A stretch of 64,000 bases of DNA. Origin: Alphaproteobacteria bacterium (GTDB lineage: Bacteria; Pseudomonadota; Alphaproteobacteria; CBDBCS01). The stretch covers positions 343,789 through 407,788 of the forward strand of contig CBDBCS010000006.1 in the NCBI GenBank assembly GCA_965203415.1, read 5' to 3'. A program made the position numbers and the translations under genes. The first letter of the stretch is position 1. Each line of letters starts with the position of its first letter. Below the pieces are notes generated by a model. The model did no database searches. It saw nothing but the letters and a program-made list of their open reading frames with translations, and had not been told where the DNA came from. This document shows positions 2,532 through 34,045 of this stretch, one piece after another.

Positions 2532-2580
2532 CGGCTTTAGAGCATACGTGCACCCTCAACGTACGCTCTTTCGAACCGAA

Positions 2581-12924: not shown

Positions 12925-13272
12925 CCTAGAAACACACACACAACCCACCCCTAGAAAAAAACACAACCGACGCCTAGAAAAACGCACAACCCACCCCTAG
13001 AAAAACGCACGACCGACACCTATAAAAACGCACAACCGACGCCTAGAAAAAAACACAACCGATACCTAGAAAAACGCACAACCGACACCTAGAAAAAAAC
13101 ACAACCGATACCTAGAAAAAAACACAACCGACGCCCAGAAAAACGCACAACCCAACCCTAGAAAAACGCACAACCGACGCCTAGAAAAACGCACAACCGA
13201 CGCCTAGACATACACACAACCCAACCCTAGAAAAACGCACGACCGACACCTAGAAACACACACACAACCCCC
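12925..13272. repeat. tandem array of 15 x 23-bp units (consensus CCTAGAAAAACGCACAACCGACG) in the ileS-lspA intergenic region
   Basis: Direct reading shows 15 contiguous head-to-tail units with minor variants and no unique spacers. The first, 13th and last units share a CACACACAACCC variant. Confidence 0.9.
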
Positions 13273-13313
13273 GCGCTAACGAGCCTCCAGAGCAATCTAT
13301 TAGAGTCAACCCC

Positions 13314-13823: not shown

Positions 13824-13829
13824 GAGCCC

Positions 13830-14476: not shown

Positions 14477-14517
14477 CGCCTCTTTTTTCCCCGGTTCTTT
14501 TCCCCGGGGCCTCCCGC

Positions 14518-15967: not shown

Positions 15968-16231
15968 GAGGTGGGCTCCTTGTGAGGGACACAGTTGCGA
16001 TACGAAAAGAGGCGTGCTATAATACACATGGGCACCCGTGCGGGGTACCGCGAGGTGCTCTGGGGGCTACTCTAGAGACCGCGAGGGGAAATGTCAATAT
16101 GGGGCGGCCCCGGGATGGAATCTGGGGTAAGATCCGGGGGAAGCCTGAAGAGACACTCGGGGAGATTCGGAGAGACTGGCCGTCGCACACTCAAGACGCC
16201 GTTCTTTCGAGGAGACACTAGAAACAAAAAA

Positions 16232-16987: not shown

Positions 16988-17106
16988 AAAGAGGCAGACC
17001 TAGATAAACACAACGAGACAAACGCAACGGGCAACGAACAAAAAGAACAAGACGGCGAGACGACCCGTCGGAAAAAGGGGTCTGAAAGGGATGTGGAAGG
17101 AAATAT

Positions 17107-17928: not shown

Positions 17929-18056
17929 GGTTGCTTCGCCCTTGCGGCTGCTCTTGCGACGATGTGATTCCTCTTTTTCAGGTGCCTCCTTTCCAGAAAA
18001 TCCCTCGGAACGTTTTCGCCAGGTCTTTTTCTTCGCCTGTTCCGGTGTCTCTGTCC

Positions 18057-18449
18057 ATGTTTGAAGCCGTCACCAACGCCATTCGAGTGCAGGTCCAGCC
18101 CAGCTTTGTGTCCGAAAAAAGCCATCTTCACAAGCACGTCTTTATCTGGTCTTATCGAGTTCGAATCTGCAATCTCGGGCAGGACACCGTGCAATTGCGG
18201 AGCCGCTATTGGCGTATCGTCGACGCGGACGGAAACATCCACGAAGTCCGCGGCCGCGGCGTCGTCGGCGAGGAACCCGTCCTTGTGCCGAACGCCAGTT
18301 TTGAGTATAGCTCTGGGACGCCTTTGGACACGAGCTCTGGGTTTATGTCGGGCCATTACGAAATGGAAAACCAGAACCAAGAGCGCTTTTATGTGGATAT
18401 CCCTCTTTTTTCGCTGGATAAGCCTGGCACGATTGTTTCGATTCATTAG
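18057..18449 (+). CDS. apaG: ApaG (DUF525) protein; ORF track starts at 17931 but the conserved start is MFEAVTNAIRVQV
   Basis: ...SYRVRICNLGQDTVQLRSRYWRIVDADGNIHEVRGRGVVGEEPVLVPNASFEYSSGTPL... matches the ApaG family. Confidence 0.85.
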   Translation: MFEAVTNAIRVQVQPSFVSEKSHLHKHVFIWSYRVRICNLGQDTVQLRSRYWRIVDADGNIHEVRGRGVVGEEPVLVPNASFEYSSGTPLDTSSGFMSGHYEMENQNQERFYVDIPLFSLDKPGTIVSIH

Positions 18450-18738
18450 CCTGTCATGAGCCCGGGCGGGTGCCGTCTCTCCCAGCATCGTTTTTCCTGA
18501 ATCGTCCCCCGGGGGGGTCCCCGGGGACTTTCCCCGAGTTTTTTCTGAACTTTTGCCTCTTTGATGGATTTTCGGCTTTTTTTCTGGCATGGCCTTATGG
18601 ACCCCATGGTGGGTTACATGGTGGGCCGGCGCCTTGTTCCGTCATCGTTTGGCGGCGGCGGCCTCTTGGGCCGCCCCGGCATGCATTTCTCCGGTATGAA
18701 TTCCGGCGTCTGAAAGACGCTGCTCGAAGAGGCCGACT

Positions 18739-19404
18739 ATGAACCGAACCCTTGTTCGTCAGACTCTGTGTGCCACGCCCCCGGCGGGCCCCGAGAGAGA
18801 CCCAGCGGGCGACCGCGGGCACGCTCTAGAGCGTGCCGCTCTAGAGCGTTCTCTCGCGGACCTCATTGACTGGGTCGGCGACGATTCAGAGCGTCTCGCC
18901 GACACCCCGGCGCGCGCCCTGCGCGCGTGGCGAGAGCTCACCGCCGGCTATCGCCAGGACCCGATAGCGCCTCTGATGCAGGCTCGTTTCCCGTATCAGG
19001 GCGGGCGTCAGCTTGTAACCGTCCATGCCATCCGCGTCCATGCCGTGTGCGAGCACCATTTACTCCCGTTTTTCGGCCTGGCGCATATTGCTTATTTTCC
19101 GACGCGTTTTATTGGCGGTCTCTCGAAATTTGCCCGGACGGTGGAGGCTTTGGCGCGACGTTTGCAACTCCAGGAGCATCTCACGCACCAGATTGCTCAA
19201 ACCATCCAGACGGCTCTGGAACCCGAGGGCGTGGCGGTCTGTTTGGATTGTCACCATACGTGCATGGCGTTGCGCGGAGCAAATCAGGCGGAAAGCCGAA
19301 CCACAACGCAATTTTTCTCGGGGCTGTTTGAGGAAGATTTTCGACTCCAGTCTCAGTTTTCGGACCAGTGCCGGCGCAAGAAGGCCTCGCCTGGAGATTT
19401 TTAG
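18739..19404 (+). CDS. folE: GTP cyclohydrolase I
   Basis: ...CEHHLLPFFGLAHIAYFP...GLSKFARTVEALARRLQLQEHLT...GVAVCLDCHHTCMALRG... are FolE signatures. Confidence 0.9.
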   Translation: MNRTLVRQTLCATPPAGPERDPAGDRGHALERAALERSLADLIDWVGDDSERLADTPARALRAWRELTAGYRQDPIAPLMQARFPYQGGRQLVTVHAIRVHAVCEHHLLPFFGLAHIAYFPTRFIGGLSKFARTVEALARRLQLQEHLTHQIAQTIQTALEPEGVAVCLDCHHTCMALRGANQAESRTTTQFFSGLFEEDFRLQSQFSDQCRRKKASPGDF

Positions 19405-19466
19405 GTTTTCTCTTTTTTTCCTGGTTTTCCCGGCTTGTTCCCGGTTTGTTTTTTGGGGGGCAGAGG

Positions 19467-20411
19467 ATGTTCGCGCTTTATCTTGGTTTTTCTTATTGTG
19501 CTTCGTTTCTCCACGCCCATCTCGAGCAGGAGCCAAGCCTCCAGCACGCCGCAACGAGACGGAAGCATAGTCGGACAGACTTACGCCTCGGCATCGAGCC
19601 CATTCCCCTCGAGCCTCCTTTTGAAGCCTTGCGTCGGGTCTGTGCCGAGGCCGATGTGATTCTGTGTTCGGCCCCGCCTCTTGCGGCGGCACAGCCGGCA
19701 CAACCGGGGCCGGGGCGCCAGGATTCGGCGAGCTCTCCAAGCGGCGACCCGTTTTTAGACCTATTCGTCCACGAATCGATTCGAATACGCCCTGGAGCCC
19801 GTCTGATGTATTTGTCCTCGACGGGCGTTTATGGCGACGCTCAGGGAGCCTGGGTCGACGAAGAGACGCCGCCGCACCCCACCACGGGGCGCGGCATGCG
19901 CCGCCTCAAAGCCGAACAGGCCTGGGAAGCCCTATGTCACGAGCACCAAATCCATCTGACGCGTTTTCGCGTCGGAGGCATTTACGGCCCTGGCCGGAAT
20001 GCTCTATGCCGCGTCCAGCAGGGTCTTGAGAAAATCTACGATAAACCTGGACAGGTCTTCAATCGCATCCACGCCGCCGATATAGGCCGAGCCCTCTATG
20101 CCTGCTGGCTGTGTCACCAAAAGGACCCTGGGGTTCTTTTGCCTTGTTACAATCTTGTGGACGGCCACCCGAGTTCGCCTCAATCCATGAGTCTCGCGGC
20201 CTTCGATTTAATGGGAAAAAGCCCGCCGGCACCTCTGCCGCCCCCTGTGGGGGCGTCCATGGGAGCCAGCTTCTATGCCGAGAACAAACGCGTCAAGAAC
20301 GACAGGCTTCTAGGCCTGCTGGCTCAGGCGGGGCTCGAGAAACGGCTGGTCTATCCGGACTATCGGGCGGGCCTGGCTTCTTTGCACGCCGACATGCAGG
20401 CCGACTTATAA
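19467..20411 (+). CDS. NAD(P)-dependent epimerase/dehydratase-family (SDR) protein
   Basis: N-terminal Rossmann-like start, ...YLSSTGVYGD... and ...GGIYGPGRN... motifs typical of the extended SDR family. The ORF track begins at 19368; ATG at 19467 is preferred. Confidence 0.55.
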   Translation: MFALYLGFSYCASFLHAHLEQEPSLQHAATRRKHSRTDLRLGIEPIPLEPPFEALRRVCAEADVILCSAPPLAAAQPAQPGPGRQDSASSPSGDPFLDLFVHESIRIRPGARLMYLSSTGVYGDAQGAWVDEETPPHPTTGRGMRRLKAEQAWEALCHEHQIHLTRFRVGGIYGPGRNALCRVQQGLEKIYDKPGQVFNRIHAADIGRALYACWLCHQKDPGVLLPCYNLVDGHPSSPQSMSLAAFDLMGKSPPAPLPPPVGASMGASFYAENKRVKNDRLLGLLAQAGLEKRLVYPDYRAGLASLHADMQADL

Positions 20412-20452
20412 TAGGTTGCTCTGCCCGCACCGGACGGAGCCGGAGCCGGCCG

Positions 20453-20620
20453 CTATTTCATCCGCTGTTCGCGGAACGTGACGTGCTTGCGTAGACGCGG
20501 GTCGTATTTGCGCACGGACATTTTCTCGGTCTGCGTCCGAGTATTCTTCTTTGTGACATAGAAATACCCCGTGCCCTCTGTCGAGACGAGCCTAATCTTT
20601 TGTGTAACGGCTTTAGCCAT
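20453..20620 (-). CDS. rpmG: 50S ribosomal protein L33 (55 aa; absent from the >=60 aa ORF track)
   Basis: Manual translation of the minus strand: [55 protein letters not shown], a textbook L33. Confidence 0.9.
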
Positions 20621-20726
20621 CTGGAATTCTCACACCTCATGCATGCTGTTTAGGGGATCGGTCCCCGGGAGTCGGCCCCCCGAGCGTGAGGCACACCCTA
20701 GCACAAAAAAGCCGCCCAGGTCAAGT

Positions 20727-22016
20727 TCAGCCTAGCAAAGACGTTTCGAACGGAAAGCTCGAGAGAAGCTTCGCCCCTTTATCGGTGACGAGGACTTGTT
20801 CCTCCAGTTTGACGCCCTCGCGCCCGCCCTCGCGCCCGATGTAGACCTCCAGGCACAGCGTCATATTGGGCTCAACGAGCCCCTCTTCGCCGGATTCGTT
20901 CCAGTCCTCCAAATAGACGATATGAGGGTACTCATCGCAGAGGCCTATCCCGTGGACGGGGGCCGAATAGCGATTCGCCACGAAGGCCTCGGGCAGGGCA
21001 TAGCTTTTTTCGGCAAATTCGCGGTAGCTCATCCCCGGTTTGAGGATCTCCAGATTGTGCTGGAGAATCGAATAAGCCAGATTATAGAGCCTTTTCTGCT
21101 CGTCCGAAGGCTTGACGTCGCCGCAAATCAGCGATCTAGAGATATCGCAGCAATACCCCCACGGCCCGATGAGGTCCGTGTCATAAGACACCATGTCGCC
21201 CGCCTGGATGGGGTTAAAAGACGCCTCCTGAAACCAGGGATTCGTGCGAGAGCCGGCGGCTAAAAGCCGGGTTTCGATCCACTCGCCGCCCTGGGCGATA
21301 TTGGCCTGATGGAGCCAGGACCAGAGTTCAACCTCTGTGATACCGGGGACCAGCTTTTCGTGCATGCGCGCCATAGAGGCCTGGCACACGGCAATCGCGC
21401 CCGCCATCGCCTTGAGTTCCTCGGGTGTTTTGAGGCATCGGGCTCGCTCGATGGTGCGCTGGCCGTCTCGAACCGTAAACCCGCGCTCGGCCAGAGCCAA
21501 AACGACCGTGCTGTTCCCGGCGTCTACGCCGAGCCGCCGCGACCCGCCAGCGTGCTCGTTCATCAAGTCTTCGATGACACGCACAAAGGTCTGAGCTTTT
21601 TCAGCCATTCTTTCCCCTGCCGAAAAATAATAGACGCCTATGTTGCGCCGCACCTCGTCCACCGTCCCTAAATGAGCCGATAGATGCTGGCCACCGTGAG
21701 AATCGAACAGGACGATCGGGCCCTCTAGAGGCACGAATAAACAGCGCGCCATATTGTGCAGGATCCAAACCTGCATATTGGTGCTGTCCGTCACATAACG
21801 GATGTTGATGGGATCAAACAAAACAAGCGCCGGAATCTCATGAGCCTGCATCATCTCGCGCGTCCGAGTAATGCGCTCTGTCCGCAATTTTTTCAGCTCG
21901 ACGCCGAAACCAGCGGGATAGCGCCACGCATCGTGATTTGGGACGGTCGCCTCGCCAACAGGAACGCCGCCTCGTGGAGAAGAAGGTGAAATCATCGTCT
22001 TGTCATCGTCCTGCAA
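20727..22016 (-). CDS. M24-family metallopeptidase (Xaa-Pro aminopeptidase/creatinase-like)
   Basis: 429 aa; N-terminal creatinase/prolidase-like domain plus C-terminal pita-bread domain (..HGIGLCDEYPHI.., ..TLCLEVYIGREGG..). Confidence 0.75.
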   Translation of the reverse strand: MQDDDKTMISPSSPRGGVPVGEATVPNHDAWRYPAGFGVELKKLRTERITRTREMMQAHEIPALVLFDPINIRYVTDSTNMQVWILHNMARCLFVPLEGPIVLFDSHGGQHLSAHLGTVDEVRRNIGVYYFSAGERMAEKAQTFVRVIEDLMNEHAGGSRRLGVDAGNSTVVLALAERGFTVRDGQRTIERARCLKTPEELKAMAGAIAVCQASMARMHEKLVPGITEVELWSWLHQANIAQGGEWIETRLLAAGSRTNPWFQEASFNPIQAGDMVSYDTDLIGPWGYCCDISRSLICGDVKPSDEQKRLYNLAYSILQHNLEILKPGMSYREFAEKSYALPEAFVANRYSAPVHGIGLCDEYPHIVYLEDWNESGEEGLVEPNMTLCLEVYIGREGGREGVKLEEQVLVTDKGAKLLSSFPFETSLLG

Positions 22017-22463
22017 AAAACTTTAACCGATAAACCGAGCCAAACGAGAGCCCAAACAAAGGCCACGGCACTCTACAATACTATCACAGAAACATCGTCA
22101 CACATCAGAGAACCCCAGCGAGCTCAGCTCAAAGAACCGGCAAGAAAAACCCATAGAACAGAAAATCCGAGCCGATAACAAAAGCCTAGAGAAAAAAACA
22201 TCGGTACAATTGTCTCACAACGACTTTTTTGATACCTTTCGGGCCATTCGGCGTGCCGGTCAGCGTATCGAGGGGAGGGATGCCGGGTTGTTTTTGAAGG
22301 GAACTCCCTCGAGCCATACCCCGGTCTTTTTGGCGAGGCTCGTTCGCAAGAGAGGCCGACCATGCTCTGAGAGAGAGCCTCTCAAGCGGACATCCGCAAG
22401 CCCAGCCCCTCTTGAGAAGCCTTTTTCTGTTATGTTCTTCTATTTTCCTGTTGTTTTGTTCCT

Positions 22464-22985
22464 ATGAGATGTCCTTTTTGTTCCAGTGAGAGAACGCAGA
22501 TTCGCGATTCACGACCCGAGCACGGAGGCACTCAAACGCGTCGAAGGCGCGTGTGTGTGGTGTGCGGCGGAAACTTCAGGACGACGGAGACCCTCTATAA
22601 GCCTCTTTTGGACGTTCGAAAAAAAGACAATCGAATCGAGCCTTTTGCCCCGGAAAAATTGCGCTGCGCCCTGCGTGGGGCTTTTGGCCTCAAGGCCATG
22701 GGAGGGGCGAACCTCGACGCTTTGGTTGAAACCCTTTGTCTGGAGCTCACCAGTCTCGATGTCTCGGTTCTGGCCGCCTCTGATATAGGCGCGGTGGTCA
22801 TGAAACGGCTTAAGCAGACGGATGCCATCGCCTATTTGAGGTTTGCCATTCGTCATTTAGGGCTCGTCTCTTTCGAGGAAGTTGCCCGGTTTCTCCGGGA
22901 GCACCAGGAGCACCAGGAGCACCTGGGTCCAAAGCCCCATACACCCGGGCCTCCCGTCCCCTGGGACCGTTCCGAAAAGCCGTGA
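22464..22985 (+). CDS. nrdR: transcriptional repressor NrdR (with HQEHQEH-containing C-terminal tail)
   Basis: MRCPFCSSERTQIRDSRPEHGGTQTRRRRVCVVCGGNFRTTE is the Zn-ribbon, followed by an ATP-cone; conserved nrdR-ribD pairing. Confidence 0.9.
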   Translation: MRCPFCSSERTQIRDSRPEHGGTQTRRRRVCVVCGGNFRTTETLYKPLLDVRKKDNRIEPFAPEKLRCALRGAFGLKAMGGANLDALVETLCLELTSLDVSVLAASDIGAVVMKRLKQTDAIAYLRFAIRHLGLVSFEEVARFLREHQEHQEHLGPKPHTPGPPVPWDRSEKP

Positions 22986-24238
22986 AGAACGCGGCGAACG
23001 CTTCGGGTGTTTCGGAGAGCTTGCCTCTAGACCCCGCCGCCCAGAGTTGGTTGCAGCGTGCGCTCCGTTTCGCGGAGGGCCGTATCGGTCGGACGGGGTC
23101 CAATCCTGCGGTCGCCTGTCTCCTGGTTCAAAACGACAGGCTGGTCGGCCGAGGCCGAACCGGCCTGGGCGGGCGCCCGCACGCCGAGAGCCTGGCTCTC
23201 GCCGAAGCGGGCGAGCACGCGCGCGGAGCATGCGGCTATGTCACGCTGGAGCCGTGCAACCACCACGGCCAGACGGAGCCATGTACGGAGGCTCTGATTC
23301 GAGCCGGCGTGCGGCGGGTCGTCGTCGGGTTTCTGGACCCGGACGTTCGCGTCCGAGGCCGCGGGCTGGCACGGCTCCGGGCCGCGGGGGTCGAGACCTA
23401 CCTGGCCCGCGGCGTGCCGCTCCCCGCGAGCCTGCGTCCTTATTTTTTCCACAGACAACACGGCGCGGCGTATCTGAGCCTCAAGAGCGCGACAAGCCTG
23501 GACGGACGCATCGCCCTGGCATCGGGCGAGAGCCGATGGATTACCAACGCCGCCGCCCGCCGCTGGAGCCACGGGCTGCGGGCTCGTGTCGATGGCGTGA
23601 TGATCGGGGCGGAAACGGCTCTGCGAGACCAACCCCGGCTGGATTGCCGACTCAGCGGGCTGGAGGACGCCGGCGGGCGGGTGATTCTTTTGGATACCTC
23701 TTTCCGGGTGCCGGCCTCTTTTTTCCGAGACAAACGCCAGACCGTCCTCATCGGGAGTCACGCGCATTTCGACCCGAGCTTGCCTCAGCTCGCCCCTCTC
23801 CAGCAGAGCGGCGGGCTTGTTCTGACGTGCCAGCCGTCCGAGCTGGATACGCTGGGACGCCCCGACCTTCGAGGCGTTCTCGTCCAATTAGCCCAGCTGG
23901 GTCTAGTCCACGTCTTGCTGGAGGGCGGAAGCCGTCTCGCCGGCACCGCCTTGCAGAACGACCTGCCGGGGCACATTTATCACTTCCAGAGTGAAAAAAT
24001 AATTGGGAAAACAGGGCTGTCTATGATAGACTCGCCCGCGTTGCCCGCGTTGTCTGGTGCATTTTCTGATGCATTGGCGAGGCCGCCTCGTTTTCAACTG
24101 GAGGACTCTGTCCTCTTCCCGCCGGACTCTGCGCAGGAGGGCGAGACTTTGCTTTCGGTCTGGGGCAGGGTTTCTTCTTTTTCGGAGAATTCAAGCCCCG
24201 CCTCTCCTGGTTCTCCCGGATCTCCTAGTTCTGATTGA
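22982..24238 (+). CDS. ribD: bifunctional riboflavin biosynthesis protein RibD (deaminase/reductase) with Ser/Pro-rich C-terminal tail
   Basis: CMP/dCMP deaminase zinc motif (HAESLALAEAG...TLEPCNHHGQTEPC) followed by a RibD C-terminal reductase domain. Confidence 0.85.
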   Translation: MKNAANASGVSESLPLDPAAQSWLQRALRFAEGRIGRTGSNPAVACLLVQNDRLVGRGRTGLGGRPHAESLALAEAGEHARGACGYVTLEPCNHHGQTEPCTEALIRAGVRRVVVGFLDPDVRVRGRGLARLRAAGVETYLARGVPLPASLRPYFFHRQHGAAYLSLKSATSLDGRIALASGESRWITNAAARRWSHGLRARVDGVMIGAETALRDQPRLDCRLSGLEDAGGRVILLDTSFRVPASFFRDKRQTVLIGSHAHFDPSLPQLAPLQQSGGLVLTCQPSELDTLGRPDLRGVLVQLAQLGLVHVLLEGGSRLAGTALQNDLPGHIYHFQSEKIIGKTGLSMIDSPALPALSGAFSDALARPPRFQLEDSVLFPPDSAQEGETLLSVWGRVSSFSENSSPASPGSPGSPSSD

Positions 24239-24569
24239 GGTTTTCCCCCCGGACTTCTGCCAGAGCCTTTCTTTTGGGGCGTCTTTGGTTTTGGCGTATT
24301 CGTCTTGTCCGTCCGTTGCGCGTGGAGGTGCATGGGCGTCAGATAGGCGTCGAATCCGGGACCGACCCAGACCTGGCCCCGGAATTGTCACCATGGGTTG
24401 TTCGTTACGGGTTGTTACCGGGGCTGTTATCCGGCATCTACGGCGTTATCGAGACCTATCGAACGCGTTCTGAACGGACGCGCGATGAGGGCACGATGGA
24501 AAAGACGGCGGAAAAGACGGCATTAGTTTTAGCAAGTTCAGCACATTTTTAGGGACAGCACGCGTTAAG

Positions 24570-27500
24570 ATGAAGCAAAAAATGATTTTGTCGGTGGCTC
24601 TGTGGCGGCAATTTTCAGCCGAAGAGCCCCGATTCGGAACGAGACCCTGCCCCTGGACGATAAGAGGGCCCCTTCTCGGAGCCCCGCTTCCTCTCGTTCT
24701 GGCGGCCTGTTCTTCGTTGGACGATGATTTTGCGGACCAAGAGTTTCCACAGGATGGCCTGTTCGTGGAATCCGATGGGAGTACGACCTACAGCCTCCCC
24801 GACGAAGTCGTTCTGGGTACCGACTCCGAGGAGGCCAGACGCACAAGTGCCTCTCCCAATGACGATGAAATTTTCGTCGTTGTCACGTTTAACCAGGACC
24901 TGGCCGGCCTGCCGCTAGACGAGATCGTCCTGATAGACGACGAAACGGAAGACGACGAGGACGAGACAACGGACACGACGCCCCAACCCCGCGGCCGCGT
25001 CACCAGTATCCAGAGCGACCCAGATAATCAACGCGTTTTTACGATCTCTCTGACCGTCGATGATGGGGCGGATGGTCTTCTGGCTCTTTTCTTGAAGGAG
25101 GGGGCTTTGGTGGAGAACAGCGATGGTTTTTTCTATCGTCTGGCGGCCGACCTGCCCCTTGGGCAGCATCGAGCCGACGGGATGGGGCCTCAGGCTCTTG
25201 GGGCGGACCCCGACGACTATCCAACGGGCGTGACCGAAGCGGTGAGCGTCTCTTCGGATGGGCCCAATGCCCGCCAAATCGTCTTCAGCCTCTTTTTCGA
25301 CGAGGACTATGAAGATTTAGACTGGGGCGACCTGGTGTTCCTGGACGCCGCAGGAAACACGCTGTCGATCGCCGAAGAGCTTGTGACGACCTCCATCGCC
25401 GACGGCGTCCTGAGCCTCGACGGCACCGAAGCCACGCCTCTGCCTCAATTTGTCGCGGTCACCGTCGAACTGGACGGGCGAGGCAGTATCAATGTCCGCC
25501 TCTCGGACGAACGGGCCGAGGAAGACGACGACGACGATGACCCCGCCACAGGCTATGGCCAAATCACCGACATTTACGGCAATGCCACGCTTTTCTCGGA
25601 CCTGACCCAAGAGGAACTAGACCGCTACCAGCTGGCGGACCCCTATTATTTTGACATTGTCTCGCCCGCCAGCCTGACAGTCGACGAAACAGGCCGAGAG
25701 GTGACCTTGGTCTTCTCGACGCCTGTAACGGCCGGTATGGTCGAGGCGGACGATTTCTCTCTTTTTGACGGCGACAGAGAACTCACCATCACCTCCCTCA
25801 CCGGGCTCACCGATACAGGGGACGAGGAGCTGGAAGAAGAGGAGCTGGAAGGAAATTTAAGCTACACCAGTTTCGTGCTCCACATCAGCGAGAGCCTGAA
25901 GGCCGACTCTGAAATAAGCCTGTCCTATGAAGGCGACATGGACAATCTCACCTACACGACGCGGCCGAGCGGCGGGCTTCAGGCGACCGAAACCTATGTT
26001 ACCAGTTTTACAAGAGACCAGGCCGAAAGAGCCCTGGGAGACCGTATCACGCTCGATCTGGTTCAACCGGGAGCCGATGCTTCGCTGGCGTTCACGGCGG
26101 GCGGAGCGATGCTCATGTTCGCCGAGGGCTCCGGCGGCGGCGGCGGCGTCCAGCTGGTCACCACCGAAACGAGCGAGGACTCTGAGACCGAGGCTGTGAC
26201 GACTCAAACGCTCCACCACGGCAGCGTGGGCGGCGCAGGCCGTGGCACGGACTCGGTTCTCACGGGCGGAGCGGGGTCTGATATTTTGTTCGCCGATGGG
26301 TCGGGCGGCGGCGGCGGCGGCGCTTCGACGACCTCCACGGACGATGATCTCAGCGCGGGCACACCGGGCGAAGGCGGAACCGTCGGCGACGGCGACGACG
26401 TCCTCCAAGGCGGCGGCGGGGTCGATATTTTAATCGGCGACGGCTTTGCGGGCTCGAGCGGCGAGGGAGCCGATGGCGGGGCCGGCGGCTTCGGCGGCGG
26501 CGGCGGCGGCGAGGCCTATCTCCGCTATGGCCCCGACCCAGACGATGAAGCGGAAACCATTGCGCTGGACGGCGGAACCGGGGGCGAAGGCGGCTTCGGC
26601 GGCGGCACCGGGGCCGGCTGGCAGACGGCCATCGACGCGGAAACCGACAGCGACGGCATGGTGACCCCGGCCACAGAGGCGATGGTGGTGTTTGCCCTCA
26701 CCCCGACCTACGGCCACCACGCCACCACCAGCATGCCCGAACGCATCGAGGCCGGCGCCGGCGTGAGTCCCGACGGGGCCACCGAAGACGACCCAAACGG
26801 CGGCGTTGTCCCCAATGACGAGGGCGACGCTGGCGCGCCGGGGGCACTCAATCTGGCTCTCGATCAGGCAAGCTTTGAGGCGTTCCTGGATCAATTGGAC
26901 CTCGACGGCAACGACGACGACGAGCGGCTGTGGGATGATTCGGCCATGCAGGCTCCCGGCCAGGGCCGAGACGTGCTGGATGGCGGGGCTGGGAATGATG
27001 TACTCCTGGGTGGGGGCGGAGCCGACCTCTTCGTTCTGGACCTGCGGACCATGGAGGACGGCGAAATCGACCGGATTCTGGACTGGGGCCGAGGCAATGA
27101 TTTGCTCCATCTCAAAGACAGAGACGGCGAAACCATCGCTTTTCCTTTTTTAAGGACGACCCGTTTCGACATAACGCGCGAGACAGGCTCAGACCGATTT
27201 GGCTCTTATTTGTCCATCGGGATCAAAGAGCTGGCAGAAGGCATGAATCCCGAAAAAAATGTCTCGCTGCGTCTTTATAGTCTCCATAATGCCGCCACGC
27301 TGACCGAGGACGATTTCACCGATGCGGCCTTTTATACGCCGTCTCTTTTTCAGCCTGTGTCGGGTACCAGTCGTCTGGTTTTTTACGACGGGTCGGGCAG
27401 TGGCGGGCGCGCTCAGGTCAGTTCTACCCGCGCCGGGAGCGGCGGTAACGGCGGCGGCGGCGGCGACGACGGCGAAGGCGACGACAGCGACCCCGACGGC

Positions 27501-30500
27501 CAGCAAGCCAGCGATTCGAGCGACATCCTCTTCGGCGACGGGTCCGGCGGCGGCGGCGGCGGCGGCGACCGGGCCGCGACTTATGGGCGCGGCGGCACGG
27601 GAGGCAGCGGCGACGACGTCCTCAACGGCAAGGGTGGCAATGATATTCTCTTCGGGGACGGGTATGGCGGCGGGAGCACGACTTCCAGCGGAAGCGGCCT
27701 GGGCGGTTTTGGCGGCGGCGGGCGCGGGCAACCGCTCACGGGAACCGCACAGTCCGAGTTCCTAGAGCGTCTCTCCGGGCTTGTCCCGTCTACCCCGGGC
27801 GAGGCGGGCGATGAAGCCGTCCATGCTTTTACGCTGACCGATGCGCTAGCTGGCACGCTCGATGACGCTTTTGAGGACCTCGGGGCCTTTTTCGAGGACA
27901 TGCTGGAGCGCATCGATTTCGATGGTATCGACGAAAAAAGCCGCGGCGATGACGCCCGAGTGTGGGGCGACGCCGACGGGATGGGAGCTCAGGCGCGAGG
28001 CGATGGCCGGGATGTCCTCCAGGGCGGGGCGGGGAGCGACTTTTTGATAGGGCTCGGCGGGTCGGATGTGTTCGTCCTCGACCTGGAAGAAAGCCAGGAC
28101 GGCGATATAGACCGCGTGCTGGACTGGGGACTGGGAACGGATTATCTCGAGATTCGAGATTTTAACGGCAATCTTCTCAATGCGCCTCTGACCTCCAATG
28201 TACAACCCGACAGCGAAGCCGAGGACGAGGACGAAGACGTCTGGACGATGCATCAACTAGAGGACGGGGTGCTCTCGATCACGCAGACGGAGGGTGCCGA
28301 CTTGTTCGGAAACTATCGGGCTCTGACGTTCCGCGTGGCCCCGGCGGCGGATAGCACAGGCGTCGAGGAAAAAATTGTTCAGACGCGGTTTTATAGGTTC
28401 CATGTAGATGCGATGATCGCGCCGACGGCCCTCACGAACGAGGACTTTCATGCCCCTGTTCTGTATAGTTCGGGCGGCGTTCTGGCGCTTTTAGACCGCT
28501 CGGGCGGCGGCGGCGGGGCCTCTTTGGATAGCAATCGAGTCGGTGGCGATGGCGGCGACGGCCAAGGCGAGGACGATGTCTATGAATCGGCTTCTGAGGG
28601 CTCCGATATTGTCTTTGCCGACGGGTCCGGCGGCGGCGGCGGCGGTATCCATGACGACAGCCGCAGTAGCACGCGCGCCGGAACAGGCGGCGAAGCCGGC
28701 AATGGCCACGATATTATCCGCACCGGGGCCGGGGACGATATTATTTTTGCCGACGGTTTCGACGGAGCCGCCGGCAATCGAGAAGATGGCGGCGCGGGCG
28801 GCTTCGGTTTTGCCGGCGGAGGGGCGGCAGGCGTCCAAGACGACGACGACAACACAGAGGGCGAAAACGGCGAGGATGGCTGGGGCCACGACCGGTTCTC
28901 TGGGAACGGGGCGGCGGCGGCGGGAACCACCCTATCCACGGGCGCCGGCGACGACGGCACCAACGGCGCGGCGGATAGTAACATTCTTTTTCCTTTGCTG
29001 GGGTCTCTGAGTCGGGCCGATTTTGAAGAGCTCTATGAGGCCATCGATAACGACGACAGCACCGACCGGACGCGCGGCGACGATGGGCGCATCACCTCCA
29101 GTCGGCTCGAATCGCTCGCCGGAGAGGGCTGGGACCGCCTGGATGCGGGCCCTGGCAATGACATTCTCATCACGGGGAATGGCGTCGACGTCGTCACCCT
29201 GGACATGCGAGAAATGGGCCACGGCGAAATCGACCGCGTCTTCGATTTCGAGGAAAGCTGGACAGATTTGAGCGATGAAGACGATGTCACGGGCGATTTA
29301 CTCTTTGTGATTGCCTCGGACGGTCGGCGCAATCTAGACCTCGACGATGTCGGCGAGGGCCTCACCCGGCGCGAATCCGTCGGCCGAGACCTTTTTGGAA
29401 GTTATTTGGAACAGACGCTCACGGATGACGTGAAAACTGTTTTTGTCCGGCTCTATACGCCGGGTTTTACGTCTGCCTCGGGCCGCGAATTAGAGCGCGA
29501 CAGCTTTCTGACACAGGATTATACCTCCGGCGGCGTCATTTTGTTCGGAGACCAGTCGGGCGGCGGCGGCGGCTATGACGACCGAGATGTCGACGAGGCG
29601 GAAGGCGGCGATGGCGGGCACGGCGGGAGCGGCCATGACCGGCTCCAGGGGACGGCGGGGTCGGATATTCTGTTCGGCGACGGGTCCGGCGGCGGCGGCG
29701 GCTCGAGCGAAAACGGCGATGACGGGACCCCTGGTCTCGCCGGGGCGGGCGACGACCGTCTATTCGGCGGAGCGGGCGACGATATTCTGTTCGGCGATGG
29801 GCTGGACGGGCTTTCCGCCGGGGTCGGCGGATTCGGGGGAGGTGCCAATGGCGTCGAAAACACCACGACGACCCTCGCCGAGGAACGCGAAGGCGGCTTC
29901 CAGGCAGCTCAGGCGGCGGCGGCCAATGGCGAAACGACCGCCGGAGACGCCCCCGGCGCCGGGAGCCATGGCGGCGATTTTGCCGTCACGCTGGATTTGG
30001 ACTATCTGGACTATCTGTCGCTCATAGAGGATATAGATTTGGATGGCACGCTCGATTTCGAGTTGTACGGCACGTCCTTCTGGCGCACGCGAGCCAGCCA
30101 CGGCACAGGCAACGACCAGCTAGATGGCGAAGCGGGCGATGATGTTCTCATTGGTCTGGGGGGCGAGGATGTGTTCGTTCTGGACTTGTCGAAAATGGCG
30201 CATAACGAGACAGACCGTATCTTGGATTGGGAGCCCACTCGAATCAATGACGACGATGAAGAGGTGCGGGTGGACCGCTTGAAACTTGTGGACTCGTCTG
30301 GCGAAGCGGTTGGAGCTCCTTTTGGGGACTCGGCGTTTACGCTGGACGGCTCGCGGGAGGGCACCGACCCCTGGGGGGCCTTTCTGGAGCTCGCGATTAC
30401 CGAAGAACAGGCGAATAGCGACTCGGCGAAGACGGTCTATGTCCGGTTCTATAACAATCACGCGCCGGCAACCGATGACATCGAGCCGATTACCGACGCA

Positions 30501-30515
30501 GATTTTACGATTTAA
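24570..30515 (+). CDS. giant (1981 aa) highly acidic Gly/Asp-rich repeat protein with RTX-like GGxGxD nonapeptides; probable exported, calcium-binding surface protein (possible lipobox LVLAAC near the N-terminus)
   Basis: Four roughly 360-415-aa modules each contain DILF(A/G)DGSGGGGGG (about 26281, 27527, 28607, 29657), then GGxGxDxLxG runs. Each also has a motif such as DVLDGGAGNDVLLGGGGADLFVLDL...EIDRILDWG. Extreme Asp/Glu/Gly content; (GGC)n microsatellites in the DNA. Confidence 0.7.
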   Translation: MKQKMILSVALWRQFSAEEPRFGTRPCPWTIRGPLLGAPLPLVLAACSSLDDDFADQEFPQDGLFVESDGSTTYSLPDEVVLGTDSEEARRTSASPNDDEIFVVVTFNQDLAGLPLDEIVLIDDETEDDEDETTDTTPQPRGRVTSIQSDPDNQRVFTISLTVDDGADGLLALFLKEGALVENSDGFFYRLAADLPLGQHRADGMGPQALGADPDDYPTGVTEAVSVSSDGPNARQIVFSLFFDEDYEDLDWGDLVFLDAAGNTLSIAEELVTTSIADGVLSLDGTEATPLPQFVAVTVELDGRGSINVRLSDERAEEDDDDDDPATGYGQITDIYGNATLFSDLTQEELDRYQLADPYYFDIVSPASLTVDETGREVTLVFSTPVTAGMVEADDFSLFDGDRELTITSLTGLTDTGDEELEEEELEGNLSYTSFVLHISESLKADSEISLSYEGDMDNLTYTTRPSGGLQATETYVTSFTRDQAERALGDRITLDLVQPGADASLAFTAGGAMLMFAEGSGGGGGVQLVTTETSEDSETEAVTTQTLHHGSVGGAGRGTDSVLTGGAGSDILFADGSGGGGGGASTTSTDDDLSAGTPGEGGTVGDGDDVLQGGGGVDILIGDGFAGSSGEGADGGAGGFGGGGGGEAYLRYGPDPDDEAETIALDGGTGGEGGFGGGTGAGWQTAIDAETDSDGMVTPATEAMVVFALTPTYGHHATTSMPERIEAGAGVSPDGATEDDPNGGVVPNDEGDAGAPGALNLALDQASFEAFLDQLDLDGNDDDERLWDDSAMQAPGQGRDVLDGGAGNDVLLGGGGADLFVLDLRTMEDGEIDRILDWGRGNDLLHLKDRDGETIAFPFLRTTRFDITRETGSDRFGSYLSIGIKELAEGMNPEKNVSLRLYSLHNAATLTEDDFTDAAFYTPSLFQPVSGTSRLVFYDGSGSGGRAQVSSTRAGSGGNGGGGGDDGEGDDSDPDGQQASDSSDILFGDGSGGGGGGGDRAATYGRGGTGGSGDDVLNGKGGNDILFGDGYGGGSTTSSGSGLGGFGGGGRGQPLTGTAQSEFLERLSGLVPSTPGEAGDEAVHAFTLTDALAGTLDDAFEDLGAFFEDMLERIDFDGIDEKSRGDDARVWGDADGMGAQARGDGRDVLQGGAGSDFLIGLGGSDVFVLDLEESQDGDIDRVLDWGLGTDYLEIRDFNGNLLNAPLTSNVQPDSEAEDEDEDVWTMHQLEDGVLSITQTEGADLFGNYRALTFRVAPAADSTGVEEKIVQTRFYRFHVDAMIAPTALTNEDFHAPVLYSSGGVLALLDRSGGGGGASLDSNRVGGDGGDGQGEDDVYESASEGSDIVFADGSGGGGGGIHDDSRSSTRAGTGGEAGNGHDIIRTGAGDDIIFADGFDGAAGNREDGGAGGFGFAGGGAAGVQDDDDNTEGENGEDGWGHDRFSGNGAAAAGTTLSTGAGDDGTNGAADSNILFPLLGSLSRADFEELYEAIDNDDSTDRTRGDDGRITSSRLESLAGEGWDRLDAGPGNDILITGNGVDVVTLDMREMGHGEIDRVFDFEESWTDLSDEDDVTGDLLFVIASDGRRNLDLDDVGEGLTRRESVGRDLFGSYLEQTLTDDVKTVFVRLYTPGFTSASGRELERDSFLTQDYTSGGVILFGDQSGGGGGYDDRDVDEAEGGDGGHGGSGHDRLQGTAGSDILFGDGSGGGGGSSENGDDGTPGLAGAGDDRLFGGAGDDILFGDGLDGLSAGVGGFGGGANGVENTTTTLAEEREGGFQAAQAAAANGETTAGDAPGAGSHGGDFAVTLDLDYLDYLSLIEDIDLDGTLDFELYGTSFWRTRASHGTGNDQLDGEAGDDVLIGLGGEDVFVLDLSKMAHNETDRILDWEPTRINDDDEEVRVDRLKLVDSSGEAVGAPFGDSAFTLDGSREGTDPWGAFLELAITEEQANSDSAKTVYVRFYNNHAPATDDIEPITDADFTI

Positions 30516-30699: not shown

Positions 30700-31885
30700 A
30701 AGAATAGATAGAATAGTTAGGGAGAATAATAGGGAGAACAGTTAGGTCAAACAGTAGGTGGAACAGTGAGGCGGAACAGTGAGGTGGAACAGCTAGGTGG
30801 AACAGTGAGGCGGAACAGTGAGGTGGAACAGCTAGGTAGAACAGTGCGGCGGAACAGTGAGACGGAACAGCTAGGCGGAACAGTGCGGCGGAACAGCTGG
30901 GTGGAACAGTGAGGCGGAACAGCTAGGTGGAACAGTGAGGCGGAACAGCTAGGTGGAACAGTGAGGCGGAACAGCTAGGTGGAACAGTGAGGCGGAACAG
31001 CTAGGTGGAACAGTGCGGCGGAACAGCTAGGTGGAACAGTAGGTAGAACAGTGAGGTAGAACAGTAGGTAGAACAGTGAGGCGGAACAGCTAGGTAGAAC
31101 AGTGAGGCGGAACAGCTAAGTGGAACAGCTAGGTGGAACAGTGAGGCGGAACAGTAGGGAGAACAGTGAGGCGGAACAGCTGGGTGGAACAGTAGGTAGA
31201 ACAGTGAGGCGGAACAGCTAGGTGAAACAGTGAGACGGAACAGCTAGGTGGAACAGTGAGACGGAACAGTGAGACGGAACAGCTAGGTGGAACAGTGAGG
31301 CGGAACAGCTAGGTGGAACAGTGAGGCGGAACAGCTAGGTGGAACAGTGAGGCGGAACAGCTAGGTGGAACAGTGAGGCGGAACAGCTAGGTGGAACAGT
31401 GAGGCGGAACAGCTAGGTGGAACAGTGAGGCGGAACAGCTAGGTGGAACCGTGAGACGGAACAGCTAGGTGGAACCGTGAGACGGAACAGCTAGGTGGAA
31501 CCGTGAGACGGAACAGCTAGGTGGAACCGTGAGACGGAACAGCTAGGTGGAACCGTGAGGCGGAACAGCTAGGTGGAACAGTGAGACGGAACAGTGAGGC
31601 GGAACAGCTAGGTGGAACAGTAGGTGGAACAGTGAGACGGAACAGCTAGGTAGAACCGTGAGGCGGAACAGCTAGGTAGAACCGTGAGGCGGAACAGCTA
31701 GGTGGAACAGTGAGGCGGAACAGCTAGGTGGAACCGTGAGGCGGAACAGCTAGGTGGAACAGTGAGGCGGAACAGCTAGGTGGAACCGTGAGACGGAACA
31801 GCTAGGTGGAACCGTGAGACGGAACAGCTGGGTGGAACCGTGAGACGGAACAGTGAGGCGGAACAGTAGGGAGAATAGATAGATT
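30700..31885. repeat. about 1.2 kb non-coding satellite: about 90 tandem 13-bp units (GGAACAGTGAGGC / GGAACAGCTAGGT alternating, i.e. about 45 x 26 bp), flanked on both sides by TAGGGAGAATAGATAGA-like sequence
   Basis: Directly visible. Every unit carries TAG/TGA so no frame is open (no ORF >=60 aa in any frame between 30712 and 31992). There are no unique spacers. Minor variants (GGAACCGTGAGAC) cluster in blocks. Confidence 0.95.
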
Positions 31886-32002
31886 GGGGAAATTAAACGC
31901 GATTTTTTCAGTTTTTTGCGGCTCATAGGGGTTGCACGCCCCCTCTTTTGCTGCTAGAGTGTTGACTGTCAGCGTGGCACTCCGAGGCTGCGTTGTTCGT
32001 GT

Positions 32003-32078
32003 GGGGCCGTAGCTCAGTTGGGAGAGCGCCTGTTTTGCACGCAGGAGGCCATCGGTTCAAGCCCGTTCGGTTCCACCA
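32003..32078 (+). tRNA. tRNA-Ala (anticodon TGC)
   Basis: 76 nt: GGGGCCG TA GCTC AGTTGGGA GAGC G CCTGT TTTGCAC GCAGG AGGCC ATCGG TTCAAGC CCGTT CGGTTCC A CCA. G3:U70 Ala identity pair present; encoded CCA. One T:T mismatch in the T-stem noted. Confidence 0.8.
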
Positions 32079-32130: not shown

Positions 32131-32176
32131 GGGGGCAGAGTCGCATGGGTGCGGCTCTGTCCCTCGGCTTTTTTGA
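32131..32176 (+). terminator. rho-independent terminator-like hairpin plus T-run downstream of tRNA-Ala
   Basis: GGGGGCAGAGTCGC ATGGGT GCGGCTCTGTCCC followed by GGCTTTTTTG. Confidence 0.55.
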
Positions 32177-32306: not shown

Positions 32307-32382
32307 GGGGCCGTAGCTCAGCAGCGAGAGTGCCCGTTTTGCACGCAGGAGGCCATCGGTTCGAACCCGTTCGGTTCCACCA
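32307..32382 (+). tRNA. second, diverged tRNA-Ala(TGC)-like copy (possible pseudo-tRNA) within a roughly 270-bp tandem duplication of the tRNA locus
   Basis: 76 nt, same anticodon loop and acceptor ends as the first copy. It has a C:A mismatch in the anticodon stem and an altered D-loop (AGCAGCGA). Its upstream region lacks the TTGACT -35-like hexamer seen before copy 1. Confidence 0.5.
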
Positions 32383-32431: not shown

Positions 32432-32478
32432 GGGGGCAGGGTCGCATGGGTGCGACTCTGCCCCCGCTGCTTTTTTGA
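32432..32478 (+). terminator. rho-independent terminator-like hairpin plus T-run after the second tRNA copy
   Basis: GGGGGCAGGGTCGC ATGGGT GCGACTCTGCCCCC followed by GCTGCTTTTTTG. Confidence 0.55.
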
Positions 32479-32500: not shown

Positions 32501-34045
32501 CTAAACCCAACTATCGGGCTCGGCGTTTTTCCGCTCCTGGATGAAAGCGTCCAGCTTTTCCAGCGTAGAGCTCTCCATGGCAGGGGGGGTGTAGGCGGCT
32601 AGCATAGACTTCCATTTTTCGTGAGCCCGGCTCGTCATGTCTTTCGAGCCTTGAGCTTCCCACTGCTCGAACGAATCGACGTCAGCCAGAGGCGAGCGAT
32701 AAAAAGCGGTCTCGAAGTTCTGGCGTGTGTGAGCAGCCCCCAGAAAGTGGCTTCCTGGCCCGACCTCTTCGATGGCCGATAGAGCCTGACCGTTTTCCGA
32801 AAAATCGGCGCCTCCCAGGAGGCGCGCGGCCATAATGGCCTGGTCGGCGTCCATGACGAATTTCTCATAACCCACCGTGAGCCCGCCCTCGAGCCAACCC
32901 GCGGTGTGCAACACAAAATGGACGCCCGCTAGAGCCGTCGTCTGCAAAGTCGCACACGCTTCATAAGCCGCCTGAGCATCAGCAATTTTAGACGAACACA
33001 GCCCGCCCCCCGACCGAAAGGGAATGCCCAGACGGCGCGCGAGCTGGCTGGCTCCGTACAAAATCAGAGAGGACTCTGGCGTGCCAAACGTCGGAGCCCC
33101 CGACTGCATGGAAACGGTCGCCGCAAACGTCCCGTAAATCACAGGAGCTCCAGGCCGAATCAATTGCGCTAAAGCCGCCCCTGCCAGAACCTCGGCGTGG
33201 ATCTGAGACAAAGTCCCGACCACAGCGACGGGACTCATCGCCCCGGCCAAAATAAAAGGCGAGACCACCGTGCCCTGGCCGGCCTCGGCATAGACCCGCA
33301 ACGCCCCGAGCATCGTCTCGTCAAACGTCAGAGGCGAATTCGCATTGATAAGCGAAATGACGACGCAATTGCGTGCCACGAAGGCCTCGCCGAAGAGGAG
33401 CCGGCACAGAGAAACCGTGTCCTCGGCTCGTTTCGACGAGGTCACAGACCCCATAAAAGGCTTATCCGACAGCACCATATGCGCGCGCAGCATATCCAGA
33501 TGGCGTTTATTGACGGGCACGTCGGTCGGCTCGCACACGGTGCCGCCCGAGTGATGCAAGCCAGGCGACAAATAAGCCAGTTTTACGAAATTGTGAAAAT
33601 CCTCTAAGTAGGCGTAGCGGCGGCCTTTCTCCAGGCACCGGACAAAAGGTGGCCCATAGGCCGGGGCAAAAACGCTGTGCGGCCCGCCTATCGGGACCGA
33701 GCGCGCCGGATTGCGCGCATGCTGCGTGAAGGTTTTCGGAGCCCGCTCTCGGATAAGCTCGGTCAGAAAACCCGGTTCGAATCGAACCCGTGACCCTTCT
33801 ACGGTCGCCCCCGCCTGCCGATAGAGGTCTAAAGCCCAGGCTGAATCGTGGAACTCGACGCCTATTTTTTCCAGAATATAGTCGGCATTAGACTCGATGG
33901 TCGTCATTTGCGCGTCTGAGTAGGGCTCAAAGACGGGAATAGCGCGCTCTGCAAAATTGCGGAGAGGCCCCGGGGCCGATTCGGCGGCCTGGCGGGCTCG
34001 GAGGCGGGCGGCGCGCCCGCTGCTGTCAGTTCGTCTTGATGTCAT
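32501..34045 (-). CDS. trimethylamine methyltransferase (MttB) family protein (non-pyrrolysine; glycine-betaine/quaternary-amine methyltransferase-like)
   Basis: 514 aa; MttB-family architecture (..PYSDAQMTTIESNADYILEKIGVEF.. N-terminus; TIM-barrel-like core with ..GTFAATVSMQSGAPTFGTPESS..). Confidence 0.8.
   Translation of the reverse strand: MTSRRTDSSGRAARLRARQAAESAPGPLRNFAERAIPVFEPYSDAQMTTIESNADYILEKIGVEFHDSAWALDLYRQAGATVEGSRVRFEPGFLTELIRERAPKTFTQHARNPARSVPIGGPHSVFAPAYGPPFVRCLEKGRRYAYLEDFHNFVKLAYLSPGLHHSGGTVCEPTDVPVNKRHLDMLRAHMVLSDKPFMGSVTSSKRAEDTVSLCRLLFGEAFVARNCVVISLINANSPLTFDETMLGALRVYAEAGQGTVVSPFILAGAMSPVAVVGTLSQIHAEVLAGAALAQLIRPGAPVIYGTFAATVSMQSGAPTFGTPESSLILYGASQLARRLGIPFRSGGGLCSSKIADAQAAYEACATLQTTALAGVHFVLHTAGWLEGGLTVGYEKFVMDADQAIMAARLLGGADFSENGQALSAIEEVGPGSHFLGAAHTRQNFETAFYRSPLADVDSFEQWEAQGSKDMTSRAHEKWKSMLAAYTPPAMESSTLEKLDAFIQERKNAEPDSWV

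Follow-up and report, generated by a model that had tools for sequence, protein, structure and literature searches.

A non-coding satellite with a 26-bp higher-order repeat, probably expanded from a short seed, in a bacterial core chromosome

Main finding

The 64-kb stretch of contig CBDBCS010000006.1 analysed here (the window; all coordinates given are positions in it) carries a tandem array of 13-bp units between a giant RTX-repeat gene and a duplicated tRNA-Ala locus. The array is probably a non-coding satellite of the minisatellite or variable number tandem repeat (VNTR) type, which expanded from a seed, turns over rapidly and has no sequence-specific function. Its anatomy can be read directly: there are 88 units, organised in a 26-bp higher-order repeat, with clustered variants and with degenerate edges that match each other. 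We infer that it grew by slippage and recombination and that it does not serve a sequence-specific function.

Structure of the array

Tandem Repeats Finder returned a single unbroken array at 30736-31867, with 87.5 copies and 74% matches at period 13 and with 43.8 copies, 89% matches and a score of 1522 at period 26. When the sequence was split at its conserved core, 88 units were obtained within 30735-31871, 81 of them 13 bp and seven 12 bp long, and with the degenerate edge units the array extends over 30701-31884. An earlier sequence-only reading had described about 90 units of 13 bp at 30700-31885, in good agreement with this parse. Satellites and VNTRs are defined by head-to-tail units of about 10-100 bp in at least four copies outside coding sequence, and the array, lying between the stop codon of the giant gene (30515) and the first tRNA gene (32003), has all of these features as well as the higher-order repeat, clustered variants and degenerate edges of such elements.

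The commonest unit, A (GGAACAGCTAGGT), is present in 31 exact copies and unit B (GGAACAGTGAGGC) in 17; a derived form of B, designated b (GGAACCGTGAGAC), accounts for seven more. A and B alternate at 67 of the 87 junctions (permutation p<5e-5), so that the 26-bp higher-order unit is the true repeat and the satellite can be written as (GGAACAGCTAGGTGGAACAGTGAGGC)n. Consistent with this, sequence identity within the array was 0.82 at a lag of 26 bp and 0.70 at a lag of 13 bp. The super-unit of about 26 bp proposed previously is thereby confirmed. The term 'perfect' minisatellite is not appropriate, since perfectly 26-periodic stretches measure only 116-175 bp; the longest of them (Table 1) indicates the most recent amplification. 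When the 13-bp unit was searched for with up to two mismatches it was found 39 times inside and once outside, where 1.07 matches are expected by chance, and solitary units elsewhere in the window amounted to chance k-mer matches only. An AAC-G core is invariant in all 81 of the 13-bp units. The plus strand of the array is 72% purine, with 41% G, 16% C and a GC skew of +0.40.

Variant units are not scattered at random. The 12-bp unit (GGAACAGTAGGT) is unit A minus one C; the deletion is identical in all 12-bp units and lies outside any homopolymer. These units are linked to an AGAAC-initial unit next in line (Fisher p=1.2e-4), and the two together are a 25-bp variant super-unit that has been propagated through several rounds. 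All 11 units carrying AACCG are confined to the right third of the array (runs test p=0.00085). Clustering of variants in blocks, as suggested by the sequence-only reading, is thus well supported.

The edges of the array differ from its interior. The 12-mer AGAATAGATAGA occurs at both ends, at 30701 and 31872, which accounts for the near-identical flanks noted earlier; the exact 17-mer TAGGGAGAATAGATAGA occurs at the right end only. These sequences are not flanks lying outside the array. They are degenerate, decayed terminal units of the array itself, and from edge to interior the units form a series AGAATAG..., AGAACAG..., GGAACAG.... The edges and the block-wise variants are the signs expected of expansion from a short seed.

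The array is non-coding. All three plus-strand frames are interrupted by stop codons, the longest open run being 58 codons. On the minus strand the open runs reach 80 codons but lack start codons, so that the earlier statement of stops in every frame is better put as frames that either contain stops or have no start; the only open reading frames (ORFs) of at least 20 amino acids touching the array encode 22-58 amino acids. A coding repeat is accordingly excluded.

Other arrays in the lineage

The array is not the only one of its kind. A second satellite, with an unrelated 23-bp unit, lies between ileS (9589-12867) and lspA (13314-13823), genes which are usually close together within one operon. 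Its plus strand contains 36% C and 47% A, giving a sense RNA with a C/G ratio of about 2.6, and its first and last units have an identical 22-mer that is unlike the interior units. Two arrays of at least 340 bp with unrelated units thus reside within 64 kb of core chromosome, which points to a propensity of the genome or lineage rather than to a site-specific device. By a crude SATFIND-like criterion there are at least three satellites in the window, which was itself selected for this feature. A small 13/26-bp repeat of 4.8 copies (CCCGGGTTGAATG / CCCGGGCTGAGCG; 47291-47353) is found in the spacer before an atpHAGDC-type operon; it has the periodicity of the main array and an unrelated sequence.

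The only close relative found, L122 (ENA ERZ25068803 ctg7410l), aligns with the window over 13658-24021 at about 87% nucleotide identity. Its contig ends inside ribD, so the comparison covers other loci of the window and stops short of the 13-bp array. In the spacer upstream of nrdR, L122 carries an array of 1.44 kb (8435-9875 of its contig) in which an 18-bp unit (CATACCCCGGGGGCGAGA) is repeated about 81 times, with a recurring insert of about 40 bp, and the seed CCATACCCCG is present at both ends. The orthologous site in the window reads ...ctcgagCCATACCCCGGtctttttggcgaggct..., with one copy of the seed and conserved flanks. In other words, in this lineage a kilobase array occupies a site in one species where the next has a single seed copy. 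Seed expansion is therefore directly evident, at a locus other than that of the 13-bp array.

In L122 a gene of 357 amino acids is annotated inside the array and is probably spurious. Elsewhere on this contig (6830-7710, 10001-11503) an M24 peptidase is broken into pieces and nrdR and ribD are annotated as a single fused protein of 500 amino acids. This suggests either pseudogenes or frameshift errors in an assembly of noisy long reads, and for this reason the precise sequence and count of the 18-bp units should be treated cautiously.

The three arrays, with units of 13, 23 and 18 bp, are unrelated in sequence and have one architecture: the edges resemble a seed and match each other, and the interior is derived and amplified. 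Because three arrays share this architecture and one of them is present or absent between species, we favour duplication of a seed, then slippage and unequal exchange, with rapid turnover, over a conserved site-specific device; this comparison is what decides between the two.

Proposed origin of the array and points against it

We suggest that the array arose in the region separating tRNA-Ala from the giant RTX gene, out of a short purine-rich seed of the AGAATAGATAGA type. Microhomology-mediated tandem duplication of the seed could have started the array, which would then have been enlarged by slipped-strand mispairing during replication and by unequal recombination among misaligned units. 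Newer variants (AGAATAG to AGAACAG to GGAACAG, next the A/B pair, and after it AACCG/GAGAC) would have been born inside and amplified block-wise, the outermost units keeping the old form. The array would then be a near-neutral, hypermutable spacer whose effects on its neighbours are incidental, such as a longer 3' untranslated region (UTR) of the giant gene or a greater distance between the tRNA-Ala promoter region and upstream read-through.

Several observations weigh against this explanation. Bacterial genomes are thought to be deletion-biased, and under such a bias an array of 1.1 kb must be very recent, or else tolerated or favoured. The strand asymmetry (72% purine, GC skew +0.40) is strong, and a minus-strand transcript would be a textbook substrate for loading of Rho, being unstructured, with a C/G ratio of about 2.5 and a periodicity of 13 nt. 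Only three of 22 indels of at least 8 bp between the window and L122 look like tandem duplications, so that there is no general excess of slippage between these relatives. Finally, GGTGGAACCG, present at nine sites in the array (31442-31840), is the exact 10-nt reverse complement of the 3' acceptor end of tRNA-Ala (CGGTTCCACC, at 32068-32077 and 32372-32381 in the two copies). The empirical probability of such a match is 0.86% per 76-nt segment, calculated post hoc. Units other than the derived b variant lack the complement, the consensus matching at 9 of 10 positions, and the match is probably coincidental.

A related explanation, which we consider rather unlikely, is that this uncultured lineage has a Borg-like propensity for kilobase-scale intergenic arrays growing from seeds of 10-12 bp and turning over from species to species. 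It is based on the presence of three arrays with unrelated units in 75 kb, one of them having about 81 copies against a single copy at 87% identity.

Genomic context

The features discussed are listed in Table 1. The array locus is part of the core chromosome. The window also contains a glycine riboswitch with gcvT, hemC/hemD, ileS-lspA, nrdR-ribD, smc and an atpHAGDC-type operon; a plasmid collection contained no match, and the Pfam domains of the genes adjoining the array revealed no rep, par or cas genes.

Table 1. Coordinates of the array, its parts and other features of the window
Feature	Position	Strand	Description and evidence
Second satellite	12925..13273	+	Unit CCTAGAAAAACGCACAACCGACG of 23 bp, 15 copies, in the ileS-lspA spacer
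Single-copy seed CCATACCCCGG	22314..22324	+	Upstream of nrdR; orthologous site of the L122 array
Giant RTX-repeat gene	24570..30515	+	1981 aa; RTX nonapeptide repeats, PF00353, E=5.8e-18
Left edge	30701..30759	+	Five degenerate, AT-richer units AGAATAGAT / AGAATAGTTAGGG / AGAATAATAGGG / AGAACAGTTAGGT / CAAACAGTAGGT; sequence, unit parse
Core array	30760..31859	+	About 84 units of 13 bp, a few of 12 bp; Tandem Repeats Finder, unit parse, composition
Left sub-block	30760..30876	+	39-bp (B-B-A) x3 higher-order pattern; unit-type string
Sub-block rich in 12-bp units	31033..31210	+	GGAACAGTAGGT followed by AGAAC-initial unit; regex matches at 31033, 31148, 31186
Longest perfectly 26-periodic stretch	31275..31449	+	175 bp
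AACCG (b) domain	31445..31846	+	Contains all 11 AACCG variant units
Right edge	31860..31884	+	Degenerate units GGAACAGTAGGG / AGAATAGATAGAT, closing with 12-mer AGAATAGATAGA
Terminator-like GC hairpin and T-run, short	31927..31960	+	Hairpin plus T-run 31927-31944; terminator scan, first such after the giant-gene stop
tRNA-Ala(TGC) copy 1	32003..32078	+	Followed by terminator hairpin with 15-bp stem, 32131-32164
tRNA-Ala(TGC) copy 2	32307..32382	+	Diverged duplicate; followed by terminator hairpin 32432-32465
mttB	32501-34045	-	MttB-family ORF, 514 aa, intact, without in-frame stop

Both neighbours named in the sequence-only reading were confirmed, the giant gene by its PF00353 match and the tRNA locus by two tRNA-Ala(TGC) genes. 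A search of 5.8 billion proteins for homologues of the giant RTX-type protein returned only the protein itself. The protein, whose RTX nonapeptides are of the calcium-binding kind, is probably secreted or located at the surface. About 95 bp upstream of its gene, GAACGCGTTCTGAAC (24461-24475) fits the alphaproteobacterial LexA (SOS) box, a direct repeat GAAC-N7-GAAC (GTTC-N7-GTTC); this pattern has four matches in the whole window against 2.6 expected, which is chance level.

A terminator scan detected no canonical intrinsic terminator between the stop codon of the giant gene and the array, which begins about 185 bp (edge units) or 220 bp (core) past that codon. At its other end the array stops about 45 bp upstream of a -35-like hexamer. 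The latter belongs to a weak promoter-like sequence, TTGCAC-N17-TAGAGT, which is overlapped by the terminator-like hairpin at 31927..31960 and may serve as the promoter of the first tRNA-Ala gene. An alignment of the two tRNA units showed that the TAGAG(T/C) element and a leader of 55 nt are conserved upstream of the second copy, so this promoter-proximal region is also found without any array.

Beyond the tRNA genes mttB points toward the array, with no minus-strand hairpin plus T-run following it; just past the far end of the array, at 30549-30535, the minus strand has a weak terminator-like hairpin. Since its ORF has no in-frame stop, the protein is a non-pyrrolysine member of the MttB family. 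The best homologues, with 66-67% identity, belong to Rhodospirillales-type Alphaproteobacteria; one further match (P0001) is about 60% identical. There was no synteny at the locus of the Curvivirga MttB homologue. The protein collection contained no entry with 100% identity to the MttB ORF, though it did contain RibD and the giant protein, which are encoded on the same contig. RibD matched itself, one relative at 90% identity and otherwise proteins at about 47%. From these matches the source appears to be a poorly sampled, probably alphaproteobacterial lineage.

At the far left of the window the glycine riboswitch (2407-2538, minus strand) is located upstream of gcvT (986-2221, minus strand), and directly upstream of the riboswitch there is a near-perfect tandem repeat of 3.9 copies of 21 bp (TGTCAAGCGGGTACCCCGTTC, 2581-2661).

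Functional classes and rival explanations

CRISPR arrays have repeats of 23-55 bp and unique spacers of similar length, usually with cas genes nearby. As already recognised from the sequence alone, the array is not of this type: its units abut without spacers and there are no Cas families among the Pfam domains of its neighbours. A search for G-quadruplexes (four runs of at least three G with loops of 1-7 nt) gave no motif in the array, which has only two-tetrad GG patterns and five GGG runs. Inverted repeats or cruciforms were absent from the array. Planar bending of the DNA would not be expected, the period of 13 or 26 bp being out of phase with the helical repeat.

If the array acted through RNA, it could do so on either strand. 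It seems very improbable that it specifies a functional repeat RNA, formed either as a 3' UTR of 1.4 kb by read-through from the RTX gene or as a transcript of its own and acting as a sponge or scaffold, for example for a GGA/GGAAC-binding protein or the 3' end of tRNA-Ala. This idea can draw on the lack of a canonical terminator between position 30515 and the array, the first hairpin with a T-run lying at 31927-31944, and on the 77 GGA motifs of the plus strand, the nine units complementary to the tRNA-Ala acceptor (p ~0.009, post hoc) and the fact that plus-strand RNA folds better than shuffled sequences (z=-6.25). The centroid structure is empty, however, which implies many slipped registers and no defined fold; only 14 of the GGA motifs are in the A-N-GGA context, and neither the gathering nor a permissive threshold (E<=1) gave an Rfam match in the array, the matches in the window being the two tRNAs and the distant glycine riboswitch. 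A sponge small RNA of the CsrB/RsmY type, in which hairpin loops display the GGA motifs, was rejected on the same grounds, and the transcribed repeat contemplated in the sequence-only reading is not supported as a structured RNA, the minus strand being unstructured too. In addition the tRNA complement is limited to variant b, the 26-mer is absent from the JGI metagenomes and IMG/VR, and, at another locus, one species of the lineage has a comparable array that a second species lacks. Less probable again is an antisense-transcription sink, in which a transcript entering from the right, such as read-through of mttB antisense to the tRNAs, would turn into 1.1 kb of C-rich, G-poor RNA on which Rho loads, ending transcription before the 3' end of the giant gene. 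The minus-strand RNA (fold z=+0.63) has a median C/G ratio of 2.46 in windows of 78 nt, a value reached at only 0.12% of other positions in the 64 kb, and it agrees with the published definition of Rho utilisation (rut) sites (at least 78 nt, C>G, a cytosine every 11-13 nt, little structure; PMC6407284); the orientation of mttB, the absence of a hairpin and T-run behind it and the weak hairpin at 30549-30535 are also as required. Against this, any C-rich tandem array satisfies the rut definition trivially by composition, and the rut predictor makes about 24,000 calls in Escherichia coli (PMC6407284). The orientation is inconsistent as well, the ileS-lspA array being C-rich in the sense direction and the L122 unit CCCCGGGG roughly symmetric.

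The array might instead act as DNA. Plasmid iterons and type II/III partition centromeres work as arrays of short direct repeats, and the array, if its roughly 88 units were phased binding sites of a regulator or nucleoid-associated protein, could serve for titration, as a centromere-like element or insulator, or as an upstream element of tRNA-Ala; this is very unlikely in our opinion. Regular spacing, the invariant core and the position directly upstream of the tRNA-Ala promoter-like region speak for it. The invariance is no evidence of constraint, because 4 of the 13 unit positions are fully invariant and some 15 independent variant events would by chance leave 13 x (12/13)^15, or about 3.9. 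Nor does the array match the binding-site patterns that were tried. GAAC-N7-GAAC does not occur in it, the spacing being N9 or N8, and there is no DnaA-box cluster of the oriC, datA or DARS kind: with at most one mismatch, TTATCCACA-like 9-mers number eight in the 64 kb, where 4.65 are expected, they cluster nowhere in the window and the array and its surroundings have none, and the unit junction GGTGGAACA, which matches a relaxed DnaA box at 7 of 9 positions, is at about chance level by our estimate for a 26-bp unit. Outside the array the 10-nt core, with up to one mismatch, has 14 matches where about 10 are expected, so that there is no regulon of single sites, and the titration array proposed earlier finds no support. 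The 13-bp period would place successive sites on different faces of the helix, and the second tRNA-Ala copy does without an array. Plasmid iterons and partition centromeres such as parC and tubC are themselves rejected on account of the core-chromosome context, the missing plasmid match and the absence of adjacent rep or par genes. About as improbable as a binding array is an assembly artefact affecting the length, internal order or presence of the array. Tandem arrays are classic sites of mis-assembly and the source is probably a long-read assembly or metagenome-assembled genome (MAG), but the variants are structured rather than random (block-clustered, linked, with one common 12-bp deletion form and degenerate edges), the perfect stretches are short enough for long reads to anchor, and further arrays exist in the window and in the independent assembly of the relative. 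By far the least probable is a contingency locus, at which copy number would toggle the giant gene or tRNA-Ala by phase variation. Repeats are hypermutable and the array does adjoin a gene for a probable surface or secreted protein; given its distances from the stop codon and from the -35-like hexamer, however, changes in its interior spare the reading frame, the promoter spacer and the promoter-proximal sequence, and the phase-variation switch once envisaged for the giant gene is not supported.

Occurrence elsewhere and comparison with known repeats

The exact 26-mer, with the observed degeneracies, and a relaxed 20-mer were absent from the JGI metagenomes and IMG/VR except for one non-repeated chance match (L120), which suggests that the repeat is lineage-specific. 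A genome collection was also scanned with a loose pattern, GAACAG four times at 13-bp spacing, which was found in at least 119 stretches of unrelated genomes. Among the matches listed, a Rubritalea MAG has 124 units of 13 bp over 1617 bp (L096 4870-6486) in a region without long ORFs, many matches are from Gemmatimonadota, and most 13-bp arrays are as strand-asymmetric as that of the window. In the Gemmatimonadales MAG CAWBZM01 a 13-bp unit, GAACAGCGGGTGA, forms arrays of 150-450 bp in both orientations at at least six dispersed loci (L037, L063, L095, L097, L106, L109). Satellite families dispersed in this way are rare in bacteria.

In the survey of Subirana & Messeguer 2019 (PMC6749651) prokaryotic satellites with units of 10-30 nt were often unique and species-specific and were ascribed to replication errors. 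A short-unit family may be restricted to a single species, an example being that of Chloroflexus aurantiacus; most bacterial satellites are short, only 2.7% exceeding 1.5 kb, and their median density is 0-3 per Mb (PMC6749651). The array resembles those surveyed in being arranged head-to-tail, intergenic and lineage-specific, with a unit that is not a multiple of three, and differs in its clear 26-bp higher-order repeat and in lying at the long end (1.1-1.2 kb, 88 copies). Three satellites in 64 kb, if representative, would exceed the density of every bacterium in Table 1 of that survey, with the proviso that the window was selected for the feature. The statement of the sequence-only reading that kilobase-scale minisatellites are rare in bacterial chromosomes is thus broadly right, but such elements are a described class, and the Rubritalea array is a 13-bp example of 1.6 kb. 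Kilobase satellites are uncommon in bacteria and already known, and the array fits this class at its long, many-copy end.

The tandem repeats of the Borgs of Methanoperedens are fast-evolving intergenic arrays with compositionally biased strands and units mostly not divisible by three, and partial repeats flanking them have been read as seeds (PMC9879509). Seed-like partial flanks, a purine- or A-biased strand and presence or absence among relatives of about 83-87% identity are common to both systems. Borg repeats, however, are perfect, free of single-nucleotide polymorphisms and carried by archaeal extrachromosomal elements, whereas the array of the window is imperfect (82-89% at period 26), has far more copies and lies in a bacterial core chromosome. 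Eukaryotic satellite DNA is similar in that its unit types alternate within a higher-order repeat, its interior is homogenised while the edges diverge, and variants spread block-wise by unequal exchange; it differs in extending over hundreds of kb instead of 1 kb, and the array is a single-copy locus with no centromeric or heterochromatic context. With rut sites the predicted minus-strand transcript shares its C-rich, G-poor and unstructured character, the 13-nt spacing of C and a length far above 78 nt, but this match stems from composition alone and the other arrays of the lineage are oriented otherwise. Plasmid iterons, parC of R1 and tubC are likewise short, tandem, spacerless direct repeats; they occur in 4-20 copies by rep, parMR or tubRZ on plasmids and phages, compared with 88 copies here on the core chromosome.

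Significance

Taken alone the array is a curiosity, a kilobase satellite of eukaryote-like higher-order structure in a compact bacterial chromosome. It could be of practical use as a hypervariable marker, and it is a warning for long-read assembly of MAGs and for their annotation. The comparative interest lies in the fact that two related genomes have large arrays with different units at different sites, and that a site with about 81 copies in one has the seed only in the other. A lineage propensity for such arrays, if true, would imply a repeat-generating mechanism, such as a slippage-prone polymerase or a missing repair function. The alternative, if true, would be that long untranslated spacers with a strand asymmetry are selected for, for instance as tracts that load Rho or insulate neighbouring transcription units from each other. 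Should the phenomenon extend over the whole genome, the lineage would offer a natural system in which to study the birth and loss of bacterial satellites and could show whether strand-asymmetric untranslated spacers affect transcription boundaries.

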